From: a virus
IMG/VR virus record: IMGVR_UViG_3300016476_000657
Span: 6,583-70,582 of that record
Reading direction: 5' to 3' (one strand)
Length of the DNA: 64,000 nucleotides
Notes under the pieces: model-generated
The model's database searches: none
What the model saw: only the letters and a program-made list of their open reading frames with translations
Told to the model about the DNA's origin: nothing
Shown here: positions 5,424 to 48,825 of the stretch, in pieces
How the letters are laid out: every line of letters begins with the position of its first letter
How positions within the stretch are numbered: the first letter of the stretch is position 1
Position numbers and translations under genes: made by a program

Positions 5424-5452
5424 TTGACACACCAAAATAAATATGCTACAAT
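5424..5452 (+). promoter_or_regulatory. Sigma70-type promoter
   Basis: TTGACA-17-TACAAT with TG extension. Confidence 0.7.
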
Positions 5453-5483: not shown

Positions 5484-6245
5484 ATGGAACTAAAAACCGA
5501 ACAGAGTGGGTATCTTGTGCTTGGAGATGTCCACGCGGTTTATACACCTTTTGCACGAGCAGTGGAATATGCAGTAGCTAACGATCTTACAATTGTTGCT
5601 GTAGGCGATCTAGTCGACAACGGTAATGAGGGCGACATGGTAGTTGATGCCATGTTAGAACTTATTTTTGCTGAACAAGCATATGCTATTTGGGGCAATC
5701 ACGAATGGAAGGTTCGACGCTGGTTGGCTGATAACTCGACACCAGTTGGCTGGCCCAGCAAAATTACTATCAGTCAATTTCACGATGATCGTCAATTTCA
5801 ACAGGCATTTCTAGAATTATGCAACAGACTTCACGACTTTGTCAGCTTCACAATTAATGGACGCAGTTACTTTGTGGCTCACGCAGGTTTTCATCCTCGA
5901 TTCTGGGAGGGTGAACTTAATGATGAAGTATTGAGCACATTTAGAAATGGTATGGCGGACTATTCTAAACAGTACGATTGGAAAGGCCAGATTTACCCTC
6001 TTAGAGTATACGACTGGACTGAATATGTGCCAGAAGGAGTAACTGTTTTTGTAGGTCATGATCCTACTCCTCTGAAGCCTGAGCCAATCTGGGATCAGTT
6101 TCAAGCTCGTCCTACAGTTGTAACTAACCATCAAAATGGTACATCAGTATTCCTAGATTGCGGCAGCGGAAAAGGCGGAGACCTTTGGGGTGCTGTGATC
6201 ATGAACGATTCAGACTCAATCGAATATGTAAACTTTGGAAGGTAA
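5484..6245 (+). CDS. Calcineurin-like metallophosphoesterase (PrpE/ApaH/Ser-Thr phosphatase type)
   Basis: GDVHA, GDLVDNG, GNHE, HAG, VGHD and LDCGSGKGG motifs. Confidence 0.85.
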   Translation: MELKTEQSGYLVLGDVHAVYTPFARAVEYAVANDLTIVAVGDLVDNGNEGDMVVDAMLELIFAEQAYAIWGNHEWKVRRWLADNSTPVGWPSKITISQFHDDRQFQQAFLELCNRLHDFVSFTINGRSYFVAHAGFHPRFWEGELNDEVLSTFRNGMADYSKQYDWKGQIYPLRVYDWTEYVPEGVTVFVGHDPTPLKPEPIWDQFQARPTVVTNHQNGTSVFLDCGSGKGGDLWGAVIMNDSDSIEYVNFGR

Positions 6246-6476: not shown

Positions 6477-6583
6477 TGTCAGGTTTGTTTATTGTTTTTG
6501 TTGCATGGGTATGCAACAAGGAAATCAAAGAATGGTTTTCATCAGCTATTGCAGAAGGCATTCGCCGCAGTAAGGAATCATAA
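6476..6583 (+). CDS. Small hypothetical membrane peptide (35 aa)
   Basis: TAATG overlaps at both ends; MSGLFIVFVAWVCNKEIKEWFSSAIAEGIRRSKES. Confidence 0.5.
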   Translation: MSGLFIVFVAWVCNKEIKEWFSSAIAEGIRRSKES

Positions 6584-7237: not shown

Positions 7238-7593
7238 TTCAAAATATTTCAGGCGGCCCGGGCATTGTAGTACATGGCGGAGGCGCATATCCAGTTTATC
7301 TAAATTCTTCAACACCGGGCAATCCTGCCAGCGGTGAAGTACGCTATAACAACGGTCAGCTCGAAGTTTGGGATGGCAGCAGTTGGCGACAAGTGAGTCA
7401 GGGCTATACTAACATCAGTTTAGAAAATGAACTTTATGAAGCTCTACAGTGGGCTAGAAAAAAGATGCAGGAAGAACAAGAACTTGAAGCATTAGCCAAA
7501 GAGTATCCTATTCTCGAGGATGCTATGCGTGATCTAGAAGTAATTAAAGTTCTTGTAAAGGGCAAGCGTAACAATGATATTCAACAAAGTTAA
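7234..7593 (+). CDS. Hypothetical protein
   Basis: ATGA overlap; GEVRYNNGQLEVWDGSSW motif plus coiled-coil tail. Confidence 0.6.
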   Translation: MIQNISGGPGIVVHGGGAYPVYLNSSTPGNPASGEVRYNNGQLEVWDGSSWRQVSQGYTNISLENELYEALQWARKKMQEEQELEALAKEYPILEDAMRDLEVIKVLVKGKRNNDIQQS

Positions 7594-8053
7594 ACAACTA
7601 AAGAACGAAGGTAAAACTATTGGTATTACCTTTAGCACCTTTGATCTTTTTCACGCAGGGCATATTGCTATGCTAAGTGAAGCAAAGAACTTCTGCGATT
7701 ATCTAATTGTGGGACTGCAAACAGATCCTACAATTGATCGTCCTGATTCAAAGAACCCTCCAGTACAGAGCATTCTAGAGAGACAGATACAAGTTAGTGC
7801 TTGCCGTTTTGTAGATGAGATTGTTGTATACCAAACCGAAAAGGATTTGGAAGACATTCTACTAACACTGCCTATCGATGTTCGTATCCTGGGCATTGAG
7901 TATGCTGACAAAGACTTTACTGGACGCAACATCTGTGATAGAAAAGGCATTGAACTAATATTCAACAGCCGAGACCATAGCTTTAGTAGTAGCAATCTGC
8001 GGCAGCGTGTTTGGGGAGCAGAAAATATCAAACGTGAACGCAAAAGTAATTGA
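7574..8053 (+). CDS. Cytidylyltransferase (TagD/glycerol-3-phosphate cytidylyltransferase-like)
   Basis: FDLFHAGH (HxGH), IVGLQTDP, RDHSFSSSNLR. Confidence 0.85.
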   Translation: MIFNKVKQLKNEGKTIGITFSTFDLFHAGHIAMLSEAKNFCDYLIVGLQTDPTIDRPDSKNPPVQSILERQIQVSACRFVDEIVVYQTEKDLEDILLTLPIDVRILGIEYADKDFTGRNICDRKGIELIFNSRDHSFSSSNLRQRVWGAENIKRERKSN

Positions 8054-8078
8054 CACAATACCATAATTCGTATATACT
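8050..8078 (+). promoter_or_regulatory. Sigma70-type promoter
   Basis: TTGACA-17-TATACT. Confidence 0.7.
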
Positions 8079-8111: not shown

Positions 8112-9185
8112 GTGACGTACTTTCTTAAGAATGGCAGCAGCTATCGTGTAGCAACCGAAGAATCACTAGACATTCACGAGCAGCTACCAGCCGGAAACTT
8201 TATCGTAAAGGAAGATGCATTCGGCAACCTTTACCTAGAACATATCGGCAGCTTCACTCCGTTAAGCCGTTACTACGGCGATACACTACGCAACTCAGAT
8301 CGTATCCTTCGTACCTTTATGGACCGCGACAACAGCACTGGCGTTATGCTGACTGGTGAGAAGGGATCTGGTAAGACTCTGCTAGCAAAGAACCTTTGCA
8401 TTGAAGGTGCAAAGATGGGTATGCCTACTATTGTTATTAACGATAGCTGGCATGGCGACAAGTTCAACAAGCTAATCCAAGATATCAGTCAGCCTTGCAT
8501 TGTTCTGTTTGACGAGTTTGAAAAGGTGTATGACAGCCAGGAACAGGAGAGCATCCTTACACTGCTAGACGGTGTATTCCCTTCAAAGAAGCTGTTCGTT
8601 CTAACTTGTAATGACAAGTGGCGCATTGATCGTCATATGCGTAATCGTCCTGGTCGTATCTTTTACATGCTAGACTTTAAGGGTCTATCAGCAGAGTTTA
8701 TTACTGAATACTGCGAAGAGAACCTTAACGAAAAGAAGTACATTCCTCAGGTCTGTAAGATTGCAGCACTGTTCACTGAGTTTAACTTTGATATGCTTAA
8801 GGCCCTAGTTGAAGATATGAACCGCTACAACGAAAGTCCACAGGAAGCAATGGAAATCCTAAACGCAAAGCCTGAGTATGATCAGGAAAGCAGCAGCAGT
8901 AAGTTTAAGATTGAGCTCGTAGTAGACAAGAAGCCAATCAAGGAAACCAAGCTCTACGATAAGTTCTGGAAGACCAACCCTCTAAGCCATCGTGTTATTA
9001 ATATTGAGTACGAACTTGATACTGACACAGACAGCGATGAATATCGTACTGCACAGTTTGAACCAACTGACCTACGCAACATTAACGGCGACACTGGCGA
9101 GTTCACGTACATTAATAGCCGCGGCGATACGCTAAAGCTAACTCGCGAGCGTCCAGAAGCCTTCAACTACTGGAAGGCGTTTTGA
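8112..9185 (+). CDS. AAA+ ATPase
   Basis: Walker A GEKGSGKT, Walker B LFDEFEK, RPGRIFY sensor region. Confidence 0.85.
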   Translation: MTYFLKNGSSYRVATEESLDIHEQLPAGNFIVKEDAFGNLYLEHIGSFTPLSRYYGDTLRNSDRILRTFMDRDNSTGVMLTGEKGSGKTLLAKNLCIEGAKMGMPTIVINDSWHGDKFNKLIQDISQPCIVLFDEFEKVYDSQEQESILTLLDGVFPSKKLFVLTCNDKWRIDRHMRNRPGRIFYMLDFKGLSAEFITEYCEENLNEKKYIPQVCKIAALFTEFNFDMLKALVEDMNRYNESPQEAMEILNAKPEYDQESSSSKFKIELVVDKKPIKETKLYDKFWKTNPLSHRVINIEYELDTDTDSDEYRTAQFEPTDLRNINGDTGEFTYINSRGDTLKLTRERPEAFNYWKAF

Positions 9186-9188
9186 TCT

Positions 9189-9560
9189 ATGTCAACTAAA
9201 CTATTGTTAGTTGACCTAGACAAAGATTACATCAGGCGAGTTGAGAATGGTTCAGACTTCAAGCTGAACCACGACTTGTTTCAAGAAGCTGTGAGCAATC
9301 TAAGTCAGGATATTAAATATTGGACAGCAAGCAGCGGCATTGAACTAGAGTTAGAAACTGTAAACGAGACTGAAGTAGAAGAGCTGGAAACAGGTCAAAC
9401 ATTAACACGAATCTACACTCGAGTATATGCCGTTCCGGGGTCTGAGGATGACCTTGCGTGGATTAATCTCAGCTTGGGTAATCTAAAGCCAGCTAAGAGA
9501 CTAGCACACGGACAGATGCGAGGATGGCAATTCGATTGGGGACACAGTGAAGGTTATTAA
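9189..9560 (+). CDS. Hypothetical protein
   Basis: 123-aa ORF in operon. Confidence 0.55.
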   Translation: MSTKLLLVDLDKDYIRRVENGSDFKLNHDLFQEAVSNLSQDIKYWTASSGIELELETVNETEVEELETGQTLTRIYTRVYAVPGSEDDLAWINLSLGNLKPAKRLAHGQMRGWQFDWGHSEGY

Positions 9561-10092
9561 CTTTTTTGGTGGTGCGGGCGTAGGTAAAAGTACACATGCA
9601 GCTGGCTTATTCTATCATATGAAGAGTCGGGGCTATAATGTAGAACTAATAAACGAATACGCCAAGCAAATGGTTTGGGAAGGTCACAGCGAAGTTATGC
9701 GTGACCAGTTCTACCTAGCGGCCAACCAACACCGTCAAATGATTCGTCTGGATGGTAAAGTTGATTACTGTATCACTGACAGCCCTATGCTGCTAAACAT
9801 TGTTTACCGTGACATGTACGGCGAACCCTTGTACAGTGACACTTTGGACAAACTGGTATTAGAATGCCATCGTCGTTATGAAAATATCAACATAGTAATG
9901 AAAAGGCCTCAAGCTAATTCTTTCAAACAAGAAGGTAGGTTGCAGGACTATATTCAAAGCTGTGTAGTAGACGAGCGCATTGAACGTGTATTAGATAGCA
10001 TAAGCGAAAACTATATCAAAGTTAACTATGAATGGAGCAACAGCATTTTTGATGAGCTCCTAGATTATATTGTAAATTGGCCACGAGAATGA
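9547..10092 (+). CDS. P-loop nucleoside/nucleotide kinase-like (NadR/AAA_28 type)
   Basis: GGAGVGKST Walker A, EYAK, ITDSPMLL motifs. Confidence 0.7.
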   Translation: MKVINFFGGAGVGKSTHAAGLFYHMKSRGYNVELINEYAKQMVWEGHSEVMRDQFYLAANQHRQMIRLDGKVDYCITDSPMLLNIVYRDMYGEPLYSDTLDKLVLECHRRYENINIVMKRPQANSFKQEGRLQDYIQSCVVDERIERVLDSISENYIKVNYEWSNSIFDELLDYIVNWPRE

Positions 10093-11969
10093 GCGACGAA
10101 CAAAACATGAAGCCAAAGCATCTAGATGCTTTTATGGATACAGCATATAAATTTGCTGACCTAAGCACAGCAGTTCGCGCTCAAGTGGGCGCTATCATTG
10201 TGAAAGATCGCCGTATCATCAGCATCGGTTATAATGGTATGCCATCGGGTTGGGACAATAACTGCGAAGATCGCGAATATATGCCGCAGGACGCTGGTGG
10301 TTGGTTGAATCCTGAAGAGATTGAAATGCAATGGCCTTATCAAGATGAACAAGGTCGTTACAAACTTAAAACTAAACCCCAGGTACTTCATGCAGAAGCA
10401 AACGCTATTGCTAAACTAGCACAAAGCCCAGAAAGCGCACGTGACGCTGTACTGTTCTGTACTCACATGCCCTGCATGGAATGCGCTAAACTGATTCATC
10501 AAAGCGGCATCCGCACAGTATACTATGGCGAGCAGTATGTAGCAGCCAAGGGCAGTGGCGAACAGTTTCTAAGCAAGAGCGGCATTAAGCTAGAATGGCT
10601 ACCACCTAAACCTAAGCCAGTTAAGACAGTTGAAAAGATTGTTGAGGTTGAGCGTGTAATTAACGCAGGTATTCCTCTAGCATTTGATAATGGTAAGCTG
10701 CTACCTCCAGATAGTTTCTATAAAATTCTACACCGTAGGGATGAGCGCGGCGAAATTATCACTATCAAGGTGTTTAAGAACATAGCGTTTCTTCATATTA
10801 GTGCAAAATACAATTGGGATATGCTATACAGCGATGTGATGGCTGTTAATAAATTGTTTGATATTACGGATTGGGTAATTGATTACAGCTACGAAGCACA
10901 TATTCTACAAGCAGATAATCAACGCAAGGGTCTTATTTTTGATTTAATTCATCAGAGTATTGCAAAGCTATCGCTTGAAAACTGTAATTGGCATTTAATT
11001 CACGGAAATTATTATGTAGAAAAGCAGTACAACGAATGGTGTAAACATAATAATTATGAGAAAATGTTTGCAACTGTAGACCATTTGCCTACATTATTCT
11101 TCCACAGATATTATAAGACTGCAACAGAACAATACAAGCCAATTGAGTTTAGACAGATTTTCAGCAAAACTCCTGTCAAGCATTACTGCACCTTTAATGG
11201 TCGCGCTGGTTATGATCGTGTAGGGCTATTAAAGTTCTTGCACAGTGAGAATCTATTAGATAAAGGCTACAGCACTTGGCACTTTGATCCTGAAAGCTGG
11301 CAGATCATTTACATCGAAGCGCCAGATATTGCGGCTGAAAATCGTTTGCCTAATGGCGTTGAGCCAGTAAAACATTTTAGTGAAATCTCCACAGCGTGGA
11401 ATTATCAAAGTGAACAAGAGCTAATTGATTGCTATGCTCAAAGCTGCTTTGAGATTGTAATAGAAACTATCACAAACATAGAACAAGAAAGCTATAACTG
11501 GGATATACTGCAAATCGGCCGTATGCCTAATCAGCTAATCACAGATAAAATCCCTGACCCTAACACAGTGTTCCTAACTGAAAAGACCGCAAGGCCGTTG
11601 CTATGGGGCATGCCTTTCTTTCTTAATGCAGGCTATCGCAGCCTAGCAGCCCTACGTGAACTAGGCTTTAAGACATTCAGTGATATCTGGGACGAGAGTT
11701 ATGACGAAATTGCTGATCCTGACAGCAGAGCCGCTTCTATGCATAACTCTATTCGAGCAGTATTAGCATTGCCCTTAGACGAACTTGCACAGCGTATTGC
11801 TGATCACAAAGAAATACTAGTGCATAACCAACAGCATTTTCAGAAATTAGCTAGACTAATTCCTATTCGACTTTGGCTTGAAGCACACAATGCACGACAC
11901 AGCGGACACAGCAAGCGCCGTGTTCTATCGCAGTTTGCAGAACCTAACGCTCATATTAAGATTGATTAA
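10089..11969 (+). CDS. dCMP deaminase fused to a ~440-aa glycosyltransferase-like domain
   Basis: N-terminal GYNGMPSG, HAEANA, PCMEC zinc motifs; C-terminal FEIVIET...FLTEKTARP...LRELGFKTFSDIWDESYD; one continuous reading frame. Confidence 0.75.
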   Translation: MSDEQNMKPKHLDAFMDTAYKFADLSTAVRAQVGAIIVKDRRIISIGYNGMPSGWDNNCEDREYMPQDAGGWLNPEEIEMQWPYQDEQGRYKLKTKPQVLHAEANAIAKLAQSPESARDAVLFCTHMPCMECAKLIHQSGIRTVYYGEQYVAAKGSGEQFLSKSGIKLEWLPPKPKPVKTVEKIVEVERVINAGIPLAFDNGKLLPPDSFYKILHRRDERGEIITIKVFKNIAFLHISAKYNWDMLYSDVMAVNKLFDITDWVIDYSYEAHILQADNQRKGLIFDLIHQSIAKLSLENCNWHLIHGNYYVEKQYNEWCKHNNYEKMFATVDHLPTLFFHRYYKTATEQYKPIEFRQIFSKTPVKHYCTFNGRAGYDRVGLLKFLHSENLLDKGYSTWHFDPESWQIIYIEAPDIAAENRLPNGVEPVKHFSEISTAWNYQSEQELIDCYAQSCFEIVIETITNIEQESYNWDILQIGRMPNQLITDKIPDPNTVFLTEKTARPLLWGMPFFLNAGYRSLAALRELGFKTFSDIWDESYDEIADPDSRAASMHNSIRAVLALPLDELAQRIADHKEILVHNQQHFQKLARLIPIRLWLEAHNARHSGHSKRRVLSQFAEPNAHIKID

Positions 11970-11971
11970 AC

Positions 11972-12583
11972 ATGATTGAGAGCAGAGAAAACTTTTATTG
12001 GGTGGAGCAGCACAACATTAACTTAGTTGAGCTAGAGTCTAGCTGCCGGAAAATTGTAGACTATGCTAACACTAACCTTAAAGGTATTGCTCCGGATCCT
12101 ATGAGGGAAAATAAACTAATCGGCGACACATACAACGGTTATAACTTACTGCTATATCCCTTGCCCGGGATTAGTGCGCTATACAATGCTATTAGAAGCA
12201 GTTGGAGTCAGTTGAATCAAGGTCCTGATTGGTGGATTAAATGTTGGGCAAACGTGTACACTAACAGTCAATATCACAATTGGCATCAGCACAAGACACA
12301 CATTGCAGAGGATTACGACAACTACGAACCACAGTATCCCAGCTATCACGGCATCTTTTGTGTTAGCGGTAATGACACTGTTACCAGCTATCGCAATGAA
12401 TCACGTGTAATTCATATTCCTCAACAGCCTAATCAATTAAGTATTATTCCTAATCGCGACGATTGGTATCATAGAACTTGGCCCTACAAGGGCGAGGTAG
12501 ATCGTGTAACTGTGGCATTTAACATACTGCACGGCACTGAGATTGAACCGTTTAGATACGCTAACCATTGGCTACCACTTTAA
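11972..12583 (+). CDS. 2OG-Fe(II) oxygenase-like protein (TIGR02466-like)
   Basis: WANVY...HNWHQH...YHGIFCV...WYHRTWP...RVTVAFNI. Confidence 0.65.
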   Translation: MIESRENFYWVEQHNINLVELESSCRKIVDYANTNLKGIAPDPMRENKLIGDTYNGYNLLLYPLPGISALYNAIRSSWSQLNQGPDWWIKCWANVYTNSQYHNWHQHKTHIAEDYDNYEPQYPSYHGIFCVSGNDTVTSYRNESRVIHIPQQPNQLSIIPNRDDWYHRTWPYKGEVDRVTVAFNILHGTEIEPFRYANHWLPL

Positions 12584-13611: not shown

Positions 13612-13639
13612 TTGACAACATGCCCAAAGATGCTATTAT
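13612..13639 (+). promoter_or_regulatory. Early sigma70-type promoter with TGCCCAAAGATGC spacer
   Basis: TTGACA-16-TATTAT. Confidence 0.7.
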
Positions 13640-28267: not shown

Positions 28268-28629
28268 AAGTAGTTATTGCTGGTTCTCGAACCATTGACG
28301 ATTACAAGCTAGTAGTCCAAGCAATGAAACGCTGTGGCTATACCGTTACAGAAGTAGTGTGTGGTATGGCCACAGGCATTGACAAGCAGGGCGAAGTGTG
28401 GGCTCGAGCCAATAACATTCCTGTAAAGGAAATGCCAGCTGACTGGCATCGACACGGTAAAGCTGCTGGACCTATTCGTAATCGTGAAATGGCCAAGTAT
28501 GCAGATGCCGCAGTTGTTATCTGGGATGGCAAGAGCCGCGGCTCACGCAACATGATAAATGAAATGATACGACAGGGCAAGCCCTACTTCGTACAACTAA
28601 CAGAGTCTGAAGACGAACCTGTACTATGA
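28264..28629 (+). CDS. SLOG-superfamily protein (DUF2493/YspA-like)
   Basis: [35 protein letters not shown]. Confidence 0.75.
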
Positions 28630-29735
28630 GAATTGAACGAGAAGTAAAACTTGATTATAGCGATGTGCTGTTCCGTCCTAAGCGGAGCACAATGGGCAGT
28701 AGAAGTGAAGTTGATCTAACTCGCACTTATGCATTTAGGAACAGTAAGCAAAACTACACCGGTGTTCCTATCATGGCTGCTAACATGGATGGCGTTGGTA
28801 CTTTTGCTATGGCTGAAGCACTAACCAATCAAGGACTGTTTACTTGTTTAGTAAAAAGTTATTCGCCATCCGAAGTACATAGTTGGTTAAACAATCATAA
28901 TAACAAACTTGATTTAGTTAATAACTTTGCAGTTAGTACAGGTATCACTGAAGCAGACAGTGAGCGTGTTGAAGAAACACTCAAACTGAGTCGCAGCATT
29001 AAGTATGTTTGCATCGATGTTGCTAATGGCTATAGTGAAAAGTTTATTGATTATGTAGCACGTTTTAGGGACAGGTTCCCTCATGTAACTATTATTGCAG
29101 GCAATGTTGTAACGCCTGATGTAACAGAGGAGTTAATTTTACGTGGAGCTGATATTATTAAAGTGGGTATTGGCCCTGGCAGTGTTTGCACTACTCGCAT
29201 TAAGACTGGCGTGGGTTACCCGCAGTTGTCCGCGGTCATCGAATGTGCGGATGCTGCACACGGTCTTGGCGGGCATATCATTGCTGACGGCGGCTGTACT
29301 TGCCCTGGCGATGTTGCCAAGGCTTTTGGAGCAGGCTCCGATTTTGTCATGCTGGGAGGAATGCTTGCCGGATGTGATGAGGGCGGAGGAGAACCCGAAA
29401 CTAAAATTTACACCCTCCCGTATACAGGAATGGATCGAAAGCCTGTAGTAGAACTCAAAGGATATGTTAAATTCTATGGAATGAGTTCTACTGCGGCGCA
29501 GGATAAACACGGTGGACGTAAGAACTATAGGGCCAGTGAGGGGCGTGTGGTTGAGGTTCCGTATCGAGGACCAATTGAACCTGTAGTACAAGATATACTT
29601 GGCGGTGTTAGAAGCACCTGTACTTATGTAGGTGCTAAGAGTTTGAAGGAACTCAGCAAGCGTACTACATTCATTCAGGTTAATAACGGAAAGCAATTTA
29701 ACACAGTGTACGAAAACTACACTGTTGGTAGCTAA
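28626..29735 (+). CDS. guaC: GMP reductase
   Basis: [58 protein letters not shown]. Confidence 0.9.
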
Positions 29736-29736
29736 T

Positions 29737-30657
29737 ATGAATACATTAGATAAAATTTTTAAGTACAATAGAAATCCTGTTATATCTGATTTCTTTAAAG
29801 AGAAGTTAAACGAGCTTATTGGCTTTGGTACATACCATAACGAGATCGAAACAATCAGGGATAGTATTCTTCGAGAACTTGTTGACTATAGAGAAAAGCA
29901 TAGTATTAATACTGTAGTCATCGGAATGAGCGGAGGACTTGATAGCGCACTAACAGCAAGTTTGTTTAAGGATGCAGGCTATCGTGTTATTGGTGTTACA
30001 TTACCAATTCATCAAAACCCAGATGAAACTGAACGGGGCATCGAAGCAATTAACACACTAGGCATCGAACATGTGCATATTGATTTAACTGATGCGTATG
30101 ATACCTTGCTTGGCTTTTTCCAATCAGAAACAGCAGATCTAATAGAAACTGACAGGCACACATTGATGCGTAAGGGTAATATTAGAGCCCGCTTACGTAT
30201 GATTACGCTGTACAATCTTGCAGGCAAGCACCGCGGCTTTGTTGCTAGTACTGATAACTTTAGTGAGCTTGCAGCAGGCTTCTGGACACTGCACGGTGAT
30301 GTAGGCGATGTAGCACCTGTACAGAGTTTAACTAAAAGCTGGGAAGTACCTGCTCTAGCAGAACTACAAGGTGTTCCCTCTAGCACTATCTATGCTGTAC
30401 CCACTGACGGACTAGGTATTGCTAATGGTGACGAGGACCAGTTTGGTTTCAGTTACCTAGAGTTTGACATTGCTGTGTTTACTCTTATTAAGGGGCTGAG
30501 CCTAGCAAACGCTACTGATCGAGATATCCAAATTATTAATAATGTTAAGAATAGGCTTAAAGGAACAGCGTTTAAACGTGCTAACCCATATAACCTATCT
30601 CATCCTATTTTTGGTATTAGATTTGAAGAACTCAGAATGCTAGATGAAACACTCTAA
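29737..30657 (+). CDS. nadE: NH3-dependent NAD+ synthetase
   Basis: GMSGGLDSA, GNIRARLRM, STDNFSE, TLHGD, PTDGL, DEDQFG; no glutaminase domain. Confidence 0.85.
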   Translation: MNTLDKIFKYNRNPVISDFFKEKLNELIGFGTYHNEIETIRDSILRELVDYREKHSINTVVIGMSGGLDSALTASLFKDAGYRVIGVTLPIHQNPDETERGIEAINTLGIEHVHIDLTDAYDTLLGFFQSETADLIETDRHTLMRKGNIRARLRMITLYNLAGKHRGFVASTDNFSELAAGFWTLHGDVGDVAPVQSLTKSWEVPALAELQGVPSSTIYAVPTDGLGIANGDEDQFGFSYLEFDIAVFTLIKGLSLANATDRDIQIINNVKNRLKGTAFKRANPYNLSHPIFGIRFEELRMLDETL

Positions 30658-45812: not shown

Positions 45813-46631
45813 ATGGACTATTATCAAATACTAGGCGTAAATAGAAATTCCTCACCAGAAGAATTAAAACAAGCCTATAGAAAACTTGCAATGCAACATC
45901 ACCCCGATCGGGGTGGTGATGAAAACGAGTTTAAGAAAATCAGCGAAGCATACGATGTTCTCAGCAACCCTGAGAAGAAAGCATCATATGATAATCCAAG
46001 ACAAGCATACGGTGATTGGCGCGGCCCATTTGATCCAGGTGAACCTTTTGACTTTGAAGATATACTTCGGCAAGCTAGATCAGCATTCCACGAAAATCGA
46101 CGACAGGCCCGAAACCCTGATGCAATAACTGATGTTAATGTAAGCCTTAGTCAGGTCTTCACTGGCACTGATATGTTAGTTGATGTTGGTTATACTAGAG
46201 AAGTAATTTATATCAACCCAGGTGTTAAGAACGGCACTAAGTTAAGGTTAAAAGGAAAAGGGCCTAGTCGTTATAAAGATATGCTGCCCGGAGATCTCAT
46301 TGTTCGTGTAAATGTTGAACTACCACATAACACAGCAATTGACGGAAATCATTTTTTTGTTAAAATAGATGTTAATGCGTTGTCTGCAATTGTAGGCACT
46401 ACAATAGATTACCGACATCCAACAGGATCTGATTTAAAAATTACAGTACCCCCAGGAACACAGAATAATACTAAACTAAGATTACGTGGGTTAGGTGTAC
46501 CTGATTCTAATACACGGCAAAATGGAGATATGTTTGTCATAGTTAATGTTTTTATACCAAATGTAACAGATCCTACACACATTGAAGAATTAAATAAAAT
46601 TATTAAGGCAGGTAAATTTAATGAGCAATAA
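45813..46631 (+). CDS. DnaJ/CbpA-type co-chaperone (no zinc finger)
   Basis: J domain with HPD (HHPDRGG), C-terminal GKG...PGDL and GDMFV. Confidence 0.9.
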   Translation: MDYYQILGVNRNSSPEELKQAYRKLAMQHHPDRGGDENEFKKISEAYDVLSNPEKKASYDNPRQAYGDWRGPFDPGEPFDFEDILRQARSAFHENRRQARNPDAITDVNVSLSQVFTGTDMLVDVGYTREVIYINPGVKNGTKLRLKGKGPSRYKDMLPGDLIVRVNVELPHNTAIDGNHFFVKIDVNALSAIVGTTIDYRHPTGSDLKITVPPGTQNNTKLRLRGLGVPDSNTRQNGDMFVIVNVFIPNVTDPTHIEELNKIIKAGKFNEQ

Positions 46632-48825
46632 CACACAAGTAGAAAAGATCATTCACAGTGCAGCAGCGTTTGCTACAGAAAAAGGTCACGAATATATTTG
46701 CTTAGAGCATCTTGCATTATCACTTTTTGAAGACGATGACATTATTAGTCTTTGTAAAAATCTAAAAGTAGATCATACTCAGATCAAAGACGATCTAGTT
46801 AACTACCTAGCCGATAACGAGCTCAATGGACTTATTCCCACTAACGGTACTAAAGGGCTACCAAAAAAGACTGCTAGTTTAGATAGAGTTATTCAGAGGT
46901 CACTTGCACAAGTATTGTTTACTGGTCGTGATCGACTAAGCCCAATTGATGTACTAGTAAGTATTCTTACCGAAGACCAATGTCATGCAAAGTACTTCTG
47001 TGAAGTGAATGGGCTTGATAGAAATGTTATTATTCATTACATTGAACAGCAATCTAGGTCAGAAGAAAACACAGAGCTTCTGGAAGAGTTTACTACTAAC
47101 CTCAATCAGGAAGCAATGAATAGCAAGATCGATCCTCTTATTGGTCGACATGAAGAAGTAAGCGATCTGATTCATATTCTTGCTCGTCGCAAGAAGAATA
47201 ACTGTGTACTAGTAGGTGAGCCTGGTACAGGTAAGACTGCGATTGCAGAAGGCCTTGCAAAGAAGATCGTAGAGGGCGATGTGCCTGACATTCTTAAGAA
47301 CAAGGTCGTGTACAGCCTGGACATTGGTAACCTACTAGCTGGTACACGTTACCGCGGTGACTTTGAAGAACGAATCAAGGGTGTGCTACAAACGCTAGAA
47401 GCAAACCCAGATGCTATTTTGTTTATTGACGAAATTCATATGATTATGGGTGCAGGCAGTGCAGGTGGTAGCAGTGTTGACGTTGCTAACTTGATTAAGC
47501 CAGTACTTGGTAAGGGTCGTCTACTAACCATTGGTGCAACTACACCTGACGAGTTTGCAGACAGCTTTGAAAAGGATCGTGCATTGATGCGCCGCTTTGC
47601 ACGTTTAGAAATTGAAGAAACTAGCGTCGAAGACACTAAACTAATTGTCAAGGGGTTAAAGAATTACTACGAGGAATTCCACGGCGTTGAGTATGACGAC
47701 AAGATTCTAGACAAGAGTGTTGAGCTCGTTGATCGTTATGTAAAGACTAAGCACTTCCCCGATAAGGCGCTCGATGCTGTTGACGCCGCCGGTGCAGCCG
47801 TAAAGCTACGTGGGGAGAAAGTAGTAGCACTTAAAGACATTGTAACTGTTGTTGCTAAGACTAGTAAGATTGGGGTTGATGTAATTGACACCGAAAGCAC
47901 AACAGGTTACAAGAATCTAGACGGACGTATTAAGGGTACAGTATACGGACAGGATACAGCAGTTGATAAGATTGTAGAAGCTATCCTTGTTAGCAAGAGC
48001 GGACTACGTGAGCCTAATAAGCCTATCGGTAGCTTCCTCTTTGTAGGTCCAACTGGTACTGGTAAGACTGAAACAGCACGTTCACTAGCTAACGAGCTAC
48101 AAGCCAAGCTGGTTAAGTTTGATATGAGTGAATATCAAGAGCGTCACAGTGTTGCTAAACTAATTGGTGCACCTCCAGGTTATGTTGGCCATGCTGAAGG
48201 TAAGATGGGTCAAGGTCAGCTAATTGCCGCAGTCGAAGATAGCCCTAACTGTGTTCTACTGCTAGACGAAGTTGAAAAGGCTGCACCAGAAGTACTACAG
48301 GTTCTACTACAGGTAATGGATGATGGACGACTAACCAGTGCTACAGGTAAGACTGTAGATTTCACTAACGTCATCCTTATTATGACATCTAACCTTGGTG
48401 CTGCTAATGCAGAGAAGCGTAAGATTGGTTTCGGCGACAGTGTTAAGGCAGGTGAGATTAGCAAAGCTATCGAAAACTTCTTTACTCCAGAATTCCGTAA
48501 CCGACTAGATGCAGTTGTTGAGTTCAGCAAGCTAGACAAGACTATGATGCTCAAGATTGTTGACCGTCTAGTTGTAGATACTAACAAGCTACTAAGCGGT
48601 AACGACAGCAGTGTACGTATTGCTATTACAGAAATTTGTCGTCAGCAGCTTGCAGAGGATGGTTATGAGCCTAGTATGGGCGCAAGACCATTGAAGCGTG
48701 TCTTTGAAGAAAAGATTAAGAAGCCACTCAGTAGAAAAATCTTATTTGATAATCTGGCTGATTGCACAGTAGAAGTTAATTATGACAAAGAAACAGCTAC
48801 ATACAATTTCGCAGTCCAACATTAA
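46621..48825 (+). CDS. clpA: ClpA-like Hsp100 ATPase
   Basis: Clp N domain, two AAA modules ([14 protein letters not shown]; [15 protein letters not shown]), IGF ClpP-docking loop (KIGFGD), no ClpB middle domain. Confidence 0.9.

Follow-up and report, generated by a model that had tools for sequence, protein, structure and literature searches.

The DNA under study is a stretch of 64,000 nucleotides from IMG/VR virus record IMGVR_UViG_3300016476_000657 (positions 6,583 to 70,582 of that record), hereafter called the window. It makes up most of a 71.7-kb viral contig which CheckV rates as ca. 19% complete, the records of the clade to which it belongs being 19-21% complete. Among its genes is one specifying a 626-amino acid protein (P0001) in which a dCMP deaminase is followed, via a linker, by a predicted GT-B glycosyltransferase (GT). 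The reading frame is open from 10077, and the 626 codons counted from the ATG at 10089 contain zero internal stops. This ATG shares the letters ATGA with the TGA of the upstream P-loop gene; the stop codon occupies 11967-11969, and the following gene begins 2 nt later, at 11972. The gene, its parts and its neighbours are listed in Table 1.

The first-pass annotation, made from the letters of the window alone, had described the deaminase as joined in-frame to a second domain. This holds for the assembled sequence, where the DNA around the junction (10570-10700) is ordinary in-frame coding sequence with neither a stop nor a frameshift and with no homopolymer runs. A search of 5.8 billion proteins for the fusion in other phages, a check which the annotation had proposed, recovered the same deaminase-plus-GT architecture in ca. 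30 orthologue clusters (ENA, JGI, NCBI, Logan), 594-643 amino acids in length and 48-100% identical in the GT part. These include P0002, from two other ENA assemblies, which has 100% amino acid identity from about residue 95 to the end, the junction included. The ratio of non-synonymous to synonymous substitution rates (dN/dS) of the deaminase domain is 0.03-0.18, and in the GT part the proportion of non-synonymous differences (pN) is 0.13-0.32 versus a near-saturated 0.68-0.86 for synonymous ones (pS); both values indicate purifying selection. The pS is lower in the deaminase part (0.37-0.70), which is conserved far more strongly than the GT part. Since the architecture recurs as a single open reading frame (ORF) in some 30 diverged clusters, the junction is identical in two other assemblies, the linker is conserved and purifying selection acts on both halves, the fusion is real, a conserved and selected two-enzyme polypeptide of one uncultured jumbo-phage lineage. 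By the same comparisons, the hardly credible alternative of two genes joined through a sequencing or assembly error, or of a recently broken or fused pseudogene, is effectively refuted. The lineage is assigned to the jumbo phages because a syntenic relative (contig L001) measures 319 kb.

The dCMP deaminases are textbook single-domain enzymes; those of cyanophage S-TIM5 and phage T4 have ca. 140-190 amino acids, whereas here the chain runs on via the linker into a 420-amino acid GT. A full-text search of the literature found no paper on a dCMP deaminase fused to a glycosyltransferase, and this new domain architecture, built from two known folds, appears to be undescribed.

Table 1. Features of the fusion gene and its surroundings (window positions unless a contig is named; L001, L002, L015 and L016 are contigs of relatives)
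Feature	Position	Strand	Basis or remark
Sigma-70-like promoters	5424..5452 (before metallophosphatase) and 8050-8078	+	11/12 consensus positions
Metallophosphatase	5484..6245	+	84-86% identity across clade
HldC/TagD-like nucleotidyltransferase (NT)	7574..8053	+	PF01467 7e-10; TIGR02199 5.7e-22, below model cut-off
AAA ATPase between NT and p120, optional insertion	8112..9185		Present here, in L001 and in two P0002 ENA contigs; absent from L002, L015, L016
p120, 123 amino acids, clade-specific, always immediately upstream of fusion (NT-p120-fusion order)	9189..9560	+	66-80% identity, five contigs
P-loop kinase-like gene (AAA_28; "thymidylate kinase" PHROG), 3' end overlaps fusion start	9547..10092	+	PF13521 1e-10, phrog_2107 2e-15
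Fusion gene, 626 amino acids (P0001): dCMP deaminase, linker, predicted GT-B glycosyltransferase	10089..11969	+	Single ORF
dCMP deaminase domain, residues 1-172	10089..10604	+	PF00383 4e-21, phrog_174 5e-50
Polymorphic insert inside deaminase domain, residues 62-88	10272..10352	+	Carried by 11/30 fused orthologues
HAE, residues 101-103	10389-10397		Zinc site
PCxxC, residues 128-132	10470-10484		Zinc site
Linker, residues 170-204	10596..10700	+	WLPPKPK, then 2-3 (T)VE(K/R)(I/V)VE units
Predicted GT-B N-terminal (acceptor-side) lobe, residues 205-360	10701..11168	+	Clade-invariant DYSYEAH, HGN; beta-alpha-beta, beta-meander before
Predicted GT-B C-terminal (donor-side) lobe, residues 361-590	11169..11858	+	Family-wide invariant motifs
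FNGR..DR, residues 369-377	11193-11219		Donor-lobe motif
FEIVIET, residues 454-460	11448-11468		Donor-lobe motif
FLTEKT, residues 495-500	11571-11588		Donor-lobe motif
GFKTFSDIWDESYD, residues 526-539	11664-11705		Donor-lobe motif
Basic helical C-terminal tail, residues 591-626, isoelectric point (pI) 10.8	11859..11966	+	Composition, model helices, several clade-invariant residues
Probable 2-oxoglutarate (2OG)-Fe(II) oxygenase, 203 amino acids	11972..12583	+	Weak PF13759 0.013, phrog_81 7e-4
GT2 paralogue (relatives)	L001 11806-12843; L002 11803-12846; L016 9460-10611		

The deaminase domain and the linker

The N-terminal domain matches PF00383 over residues 12-147 (75.2 bits, against a cut-off of 25) and the phrog_174 model "dCMP deaminase" over residues 4-181. 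Its closest solved structure is the dCMP deaminase of cyanophage S-TIM5 (7e-29; 4p9c), and T4 Cd is matched at 1e-17 (1vq2); the best matches in the PDB are all dCMP deaminases (4p9c, 1vq2, 2hvv and 2w4l, the Streptococcus mutans and human enzymes among them), while RibD and TadA models score far below the dCMP deaminase models. The HAE and PCxxC motifs of the zinc site (H101-A102-E103 and P128-C129-x-x-C132) and the GYNG segment (residues 47-50), all of which are shared with the S-TIM5 and T4 enzymes, are invariant in 41 fused and stand-alone sequences, and the first two are invariant also within the 30 fused sequences alone. The annotation of an intact zinc dCMP deaminase was therefore correct. 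IMG/VR has at least 584 stretches that encode stand-alone relatives, and the 80 best of these are 53-64% identical to the domain. From its sequence, the domain is read as the phage's ordinary dCMP deaminase and not an exotic deaminase. The S-TIM5 enzyme also accepts dCTP, hence the nucleotide range of this subfamily is not strictly dCMP.

Some fused copies carry, between the two conserved halves of the deaminase, an insert resembling that of T4. It is 25-35 amino acids long and its distribution among the 30 fused orthologues does not track GT similarity. P0002 lacks the insert and differs within residues 1-60, and is otherwise identical from about residue 95, which points to a recombination breakpoint within the gene.

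A Pro/Lys linker had been noted between the two domains, and the stretch quoted, LPPKPKPVKTVEK, occupies residues 171-183. The linker consists of WLPPKPK followed by VEK-type repeats; across the clade it is conserved in kind but with a number of repeat units that varies among the fused orthologues. In the full-length AlphaFold2 (AF2) model the linker has a predicted local distance difference test score (pLDDT) of <50; this model was based on an alignment of only 30 close sequences, has a predicted template modelling score (pTM) of 0.64, and its deaminase part is poor (pLDDT 30-60).

Fold and relatives of the glycosyltransferase domain

Pfam, PHROGs and NCBIfam contain no model that matches the C-terminal domain, and searches of the PDB sequences with it, either as a single sequence or as a profile, gave nothing meaningful. 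An AF2 model of residues 205-626, computed from a 69-sequence alignment, has a pLDDT of 88.9 and a pTM of 0.88 and consists of two beta-alpha-beta lobes. When it was compared with 48,161 PDB chains, ca. 45 of the 50 best matches were GT-B enzymes with Z scores of 8-11.5, covering model residues 21-423 with 240-298 residues aligned. They include the streptococcal glycosyltransferase for serine-rich proteins (3rhz; Z 11.5), 6eji, a glycosyltransferase by its entry title only (Z 11.2), T4 alpha-glucosyltransferase (AGT; 1y6f; Z 11.0, 298 residues aligned), T4 beta-glucosyltransferase (BGT; 1c3j; Z 10.3), EXT1-EXT2 (7zay; Z 10.1), FUT9 (8d0o; Z 9.9, root-mean-square deviation 3.9, 241 residues aligned) and the GT of phage HY126 (9iqz; Z 9.8). 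The Foldseek list also consists mostly of GT-B enzymes, matched weakly: the best E-value is 2.6e-3, and there are zero matches to the domain model at E <= 1e-3. The structure prediction and structural search proposed in the first-pass annotation thus point to a GT-B fold, and by its modelled fold the region 205-626 is a complete two-lobed GT-B glycosyltransferase. The annotation had spoken of the nucleotide-sugar-binding half of such an enzyme; it was right as to the fold and to the placing of the motifs in the donor lobe, but the model of ca. 420 amino acids has both lobes.

All the motifs quoted from the window lie where they had been reported and correspond to invariant or near-invariant columns of the family alignments; FNGR..R, FEIVIET, FLTEKT and GFKTF..WDESYD all lie in the donor-side lobe. 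Invariant over 69 fused and stand-alone family members are R377, P509, E536, Y538, D539, R547 and N580, and near-invariant are E459, T497, E498 and K499, while the fused clade has invariant acidic and His motifs of its own in the N-lobe. In the model R372 and R377 come after the strand 364-370, and T497-E498-K499 open the helix 498-506. By analogy with other GT-B enzymes, these arginines and the T-E-K triplet would bind the phosphate and sugar of the donor.

Membership of family GT10, of which the EK motif had been a reminder, is not supported. The GT10 fucosyltransferases (FUT9; Helicobacter pylori FucT, 5zoi; plant FUT11/13) have the same GT-B fold, a T-E-K-type motif opening a C-lobe helix and a conserved Arg after the first C-lobe strand; they are matched at Z 9.2-9.9 with the highest sequence identities listed (12-13%), and the nearest Pfam-named Atlas cluster to the GT domain is PF00852, with a score of just 0.76. 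On the other hand, when Pfam was run on each of the 69 family members neither PF00852 nor any other GT model matched at E <= 1, the N-lobe differs, and the structural scores are tied with those of GT4-, GT47- and GT63-type enzymes, FUT9 being within 1.6 Z of >15 other GT-B families. The ties extend across many GT-B families, and no known GT family, GT10 included, can be assigned to the C-terminal domain. As to the T4 enzymes, AGT and BGT, like the metagenomic phage GT-B DNA glycosyltransferases, are also soluble phage GT-B proteins encoded among early nucleotide and replication genes, but the hidden Markov model (HMM) of the present family gives both T4 sequences ca. 0 bits, that is, no sequence relationship. 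The pI was considered as a proxy for DNA binding and dropped, since the values for the GT domain (6.1), T4 AGT (an equal 6.1) and T4 BGT (9.05) do not discriminate.

A profile search of 1.84 billion representatives put the size of the family at 14,422 proteins, counted as 50%-identity clusters and sharing the donor-side lobe, with 6,100 at E <= 1e-30. Many of them are tandem double-GT proteins. The neighbours of the GT domain in structure-based and language-model comparisons are 94-100% viral and unnamed. Among 50,697 deposited phage genomes (INPHARED) neither the C-terminal domain nor a central family member had a match at tblastn sensitivity, and among 185,579 prokaryote species genomes 16 loci, mostly scraps of metagenome-assembled genomes, carry the family. 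The GT partner of the fusion thus comes from a phage-restricted enzyme family that ranks with the largest of those lacking a name or a studied member.

Free-standing members adjoin genes for carbamoyltransferase, halogenase-like protein, acyltransferase, APS kinase, DegT, epimerase, UDP-glucose dehydrogenase and radical SAM enzymes, while others are fused to FkbM and other methyltransferases, TPR repeats, epimerase, DegT or UDP-glucose dehydrogenase; one clearly bacterial copy has a sulfotransferase and a giant multi-GT4 protein as neighbours. Taken together, these gene contexts point to the assembly of tailored glycans. Phage sugar-tailoring islands, with radical SAM enzymes, carbamoyltransferase, DegT, epimerase and many GTs, have GTs of this same Pfam-less family; unlike in these islands, the GT is here detached, fused to a deaminase and embedded in a nucleotide-metabolism module. 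A ThyA-like gene lay within 10 kb in just two of 79 GT-seeded loci. In our own HMM scan of 176 loci (86 deaminase-seeded and the 79 GT-seeded loci included), none of the GT-seeded loci had a deaminase of this type within 10 kb.

Locus L017 (3318-17427), from another phage lineage, combines both kinds of gene. A single operon specifies two radical-SAM enzymes, an SGNH hydrolase, a carbamoyltransferase, two family GTs, a dCMP deaminase and a 731-amino acid protein; next to it, on the opposite strand, are genes for DegT, an epimerase and thymidylate synthase. The L017 deaminase is closely related to that of the fusion, and its ThyA lies 4.5 kb from the GT-GT operon.

Genes surrounding the fusion

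The order metallophosphatase ... NT - p120 - deaminase::GT is found in all six clade contigs. The NT is 84-87% identical across the clade and scores best with models of ADP-heptose and CDP-glycerol enzymes, though well under the cut-off of either. In 18 of the 86 deaminase-seeded IMG/VR loci, all devoid of a GT, an NT directly adjoins, and often overlaps, a stand-alone deaminase; such pairs are seen, for example, in L004-L008, L018, L026, L029 and L051. In L029 a Metallophos gene adjoins the pair as well, and in two annotated NT-deaminase loci the surroundings comprise ribonucleotide reductase (RNR), DNA polymerase B and metallophosphatase genes. Since the NT adjoins GT-free deaminases in these 18 loci while the GT-seeded loci are without this deaminase, comparison of gene orders suggests that metallophosphatase, NT and deaminase form an older nucleotide-metabolism module to which the GT would have been added later, in a variable downstream slot. 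Cultured phages of Vibrio, Acinetobacter, Synechococcus and Caulobacter have orthologues of the NT, which their annotations call TagD or heptose adenylyltransferase. In cultured phages the NT is not adjacent to GT genes; more distant NT homologues lie ca. 4 kb from GT genes in several loci.

The downstream slot is variable over the six syntenic contigs, in which GT2 and the 203-amino acid oxygenase come and go. GT2, a free-standing GT paralogue of 345-383 amino acids, follows the fusion directly in relatives and is absent from the window; it retains FN(R/G)R, FEIVVET, FLTEKT and WDESYD, and is without the N-terminal beta-meander. Phages with GT2 may make a two-sugar product. The 383-amino acid gene after the fusion in L016 had been considered as a "sporadic carbohydrate cluster" oxygenase; this was rejected, as it is the GT paralogue. 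The probable oxygenase shows the pattern HxH..H..R-x-T-x-x-FN and occurs in three of the six contigs, with orthologues in L002 (72%) and L016 (49-54%) and none in L001, L003 or L015. In L013 and L014 a distant homologue of the GT is likewise followed by a 2OG oxygenase, but a different one.

Upstream, p120 is found only in this phage clade and has no Pfam, PHROG or Atlas match. The P-loop gene is variable, being present here and in the P0002 contigs and absent from L001, L015 and L016. Both promoter matches fall in the sole intergenic gaps of the 5484-12583 gene run and are of the same type as a promoter at 13612. They suggest transcription of the module by the host polymerase, i.e. early transcription; the total of promoter matches is not above that in shuffle controls, and early transcription is taken as a lead only.

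Possible roles of the fused protein

Both domains of the protein are probably active, the one producing dUMP and the other moving sugar from a nucleoside diphosphate (NDP)-sugar. In the explanation we favour, and to which we give about an even chance, it is bifunctional but its two chemistries are independent: a GT from a flexible island was captured by a core deaminase gene, and the acceptor is a glycan, a protein or a small molecule. By analogy with T4 and S-TIM5, the deaminase would serve the supply of thymidylate by deaminating dCMP, and perhaps dCTP as well, to the dU nucleotide. The GT would bind an NDP-sugar through the arginines of FNGR..R and the start of the T-E-K helix and pass its sugar on to an acceptor that the N-lobe holds. 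The GT gene would come from the large family of phage sugar-tailoring GTs; having inserted into the variable slot that follows the deaminase gene, it would have been fused to the latter when the stop codon was lost. Chemically the two reactions are probably independent, and the main benefit of the fusion would be to have both enzymes made together early and to keep the GT attached to the deaminase, whose solved homologues are hexamers. A non-nucleic-acid acceptor is favoured because the relatives of the GT sit in sugar-tailoring contexts, phage DNA being the main alternative. If the acceptor is indeed not DNA, the protein would show with particular clarity how a core gene of nucleotide metabolism can take up a gene from a flexible island.

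Several observations weigh against an independent GT with a non-nucleic-acid acceptor. When a fusion and its linker persist over the whole range from 100% to 48% identity, the two parts are usually linked in function; L017 has a related dCMP deaminase in a same-family GT-GT operon with ThyA close by; the gene lies in a nucleotide-metabolism, probably early, transcription unit and not by structural genes; and T4 AGT and BGT are among the best structural matches. The idea of a hexameric scaffold, moreover, stands on solved homologues and not on the fusion protein itself.

The same four observations favour a second explanation, in which the GT glycosylates a hydroxylated pyrimidine (5-hydroxymethylcytosine, 5hmC; 5-hydroxymethyluracil, 5hmU; or 5-hydroxycytosine, 5hoC) in replicating phage DNA, the fusion placing it in the dNTP-synthesis/replication complex and coupling the first and last steps of modification. 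The "thymidylate kinase"-like P-loop gene that overlaps the start codon, the promoters at 5424 and 8050 and the match to the HY126 GT are in keeping with it, and there are published precedents for phage DNA glycosylation. Phage GT-B DNA glycosyltransferases that put heptose on 5hmC need a cytidylyltransferase to do so, and GT pathways with ThyS or 5mYOX are associated with genes annotated as dCMP deaminase (bioRxiv 10.1101/2023.12.21.572611); phages with oligosaccharide-modified thymidine have a dCMP deaminase plus GT blocks (PMC12686479). We nevertheless consider this explanation possible but unlikely. PF00303 (ThyA-like) is absent from G000 (71.7 kb) and G001 (80.6 kb), fragments amounting to ca. 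20% of a genome; no ThyA-like gene lies within 10 kb of the fusion in the six clade contigs; and neither PF02511 (ThyX) nor PF00145 (C5-methyltransferase) is present in the available clade fragments (ca. 150 kb, from records 19-21% complete). At family level there is likewise no enrichment of ThyA, and this deaminase lies within 10 kb in none of the 79 GT-seeded loci. In structure, dozens of unrelated GT-B enzymes score as well as the T4 enzymes do, AGT and BGT go unrecognised by the family HMM, and the empty Foldseek result at E <= 1e-3 contrasts with the 1e-5 to 1e-7 at which published DNA GT-B enzymes match T4 BGT (bioRxiv 10.1101/2023.12.21.572611). The proposal in the first-pass annotation that the fusion serves base hypermodification, or that the GT-like family acts on nucleotides, accordingly gained no positive support.

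It is in our view doubtful that the GT is a DNA (or deoxynucleotide) glycosyltransferase brought by the deaminase to the dNTP-synthesis/replication machinery. Were it so, at least part of the >14,000-cluster GT family and of its islands would write complex glycans onto phage DNA rather than onto virions or host surfaces, and the known chemistry of DNA glycosylation and anti-restriction in phages would become considerably richer. So far, nothing but its stable fusion to a nucleotide enzyme connects this GT family with a defined cellular process, and a single 626-amino acid polypeptide is a convenient entry point for biochemistry.

The GT-B domain could also be silent, a nucleotide- or sugar-nucleotide-binding appendage with a regulatory or scaffolding role. 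Allosteric regulation is known for dCMP deaminases, the domain is matched by no GT model of Pfam, and the deaminase part is by far the better conserved. Such a role is improbable given that the fused clade keeps R377, E459, T497-E498-K499, E536, Y538, D539, R547 and N580 and has, in the N-lobe, acidic and His motifs that do not vary within the clade, and that an active-looking paralogue, GT2, adjoins the fusion in relatives.

Lastly, the deaminase might recycle a by-product: the GT would use a cytidine-nucleotide-activated donor made by the neighbouring NT, and the deaminase would remove the released CMP, dCMP or CDP, relieving product inhibition and feeding the U/T pool. The three-way association of NT, deaminase and GT, with NT, p120 and fusion together in all six clade contigs, is what one would expect of such a scheme, as are the NT beside the deaminase in the 18 other loci, the distant NT homologues some 4 kb from GTs and the acceptance of dCTP by S-TIM5, the nearest solved deaminase. 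It is improbable all the same, as the NT and deaminase co-occur GT-free inside RNR/DNA-polymerase modules, the NT falls well under the cut-off of both the ADP-heptose and the CDP-glycerol models, and the identity to, and invariant residues in common with, the abundant stand-alone phage dCMP deaminases argue for an ordinary substrate. We know of no precedent for a deaminase recycling the by-product of a GT. As a candidate donor-maker for the GT, the NT is weakened by its pairing with stand-alone deaminases in GT-free replication modules and by its lying apart from GT genes in cultured phages.

Elsewhere in the window (28626-30657 and 46621-48825) are genes for a GMP reductase/IMPDH-family enzyme, an NAD synthase and a ClpB-like double AAA+ chaperone, all auxiliary genes typical of jumbo phages. 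A DNA search of INPHARED gave no match to the region, so that the clade has no cultured phage to serve as a model; with the AAA ATPase and GMP reductase genes as queries for close cultured relatives, the matches were all distant. The best deposited-phage match of the AAA ATPase is to the actinobacterial Microbacterium phage Pumpernickel, with 53.5% identity over its full length.

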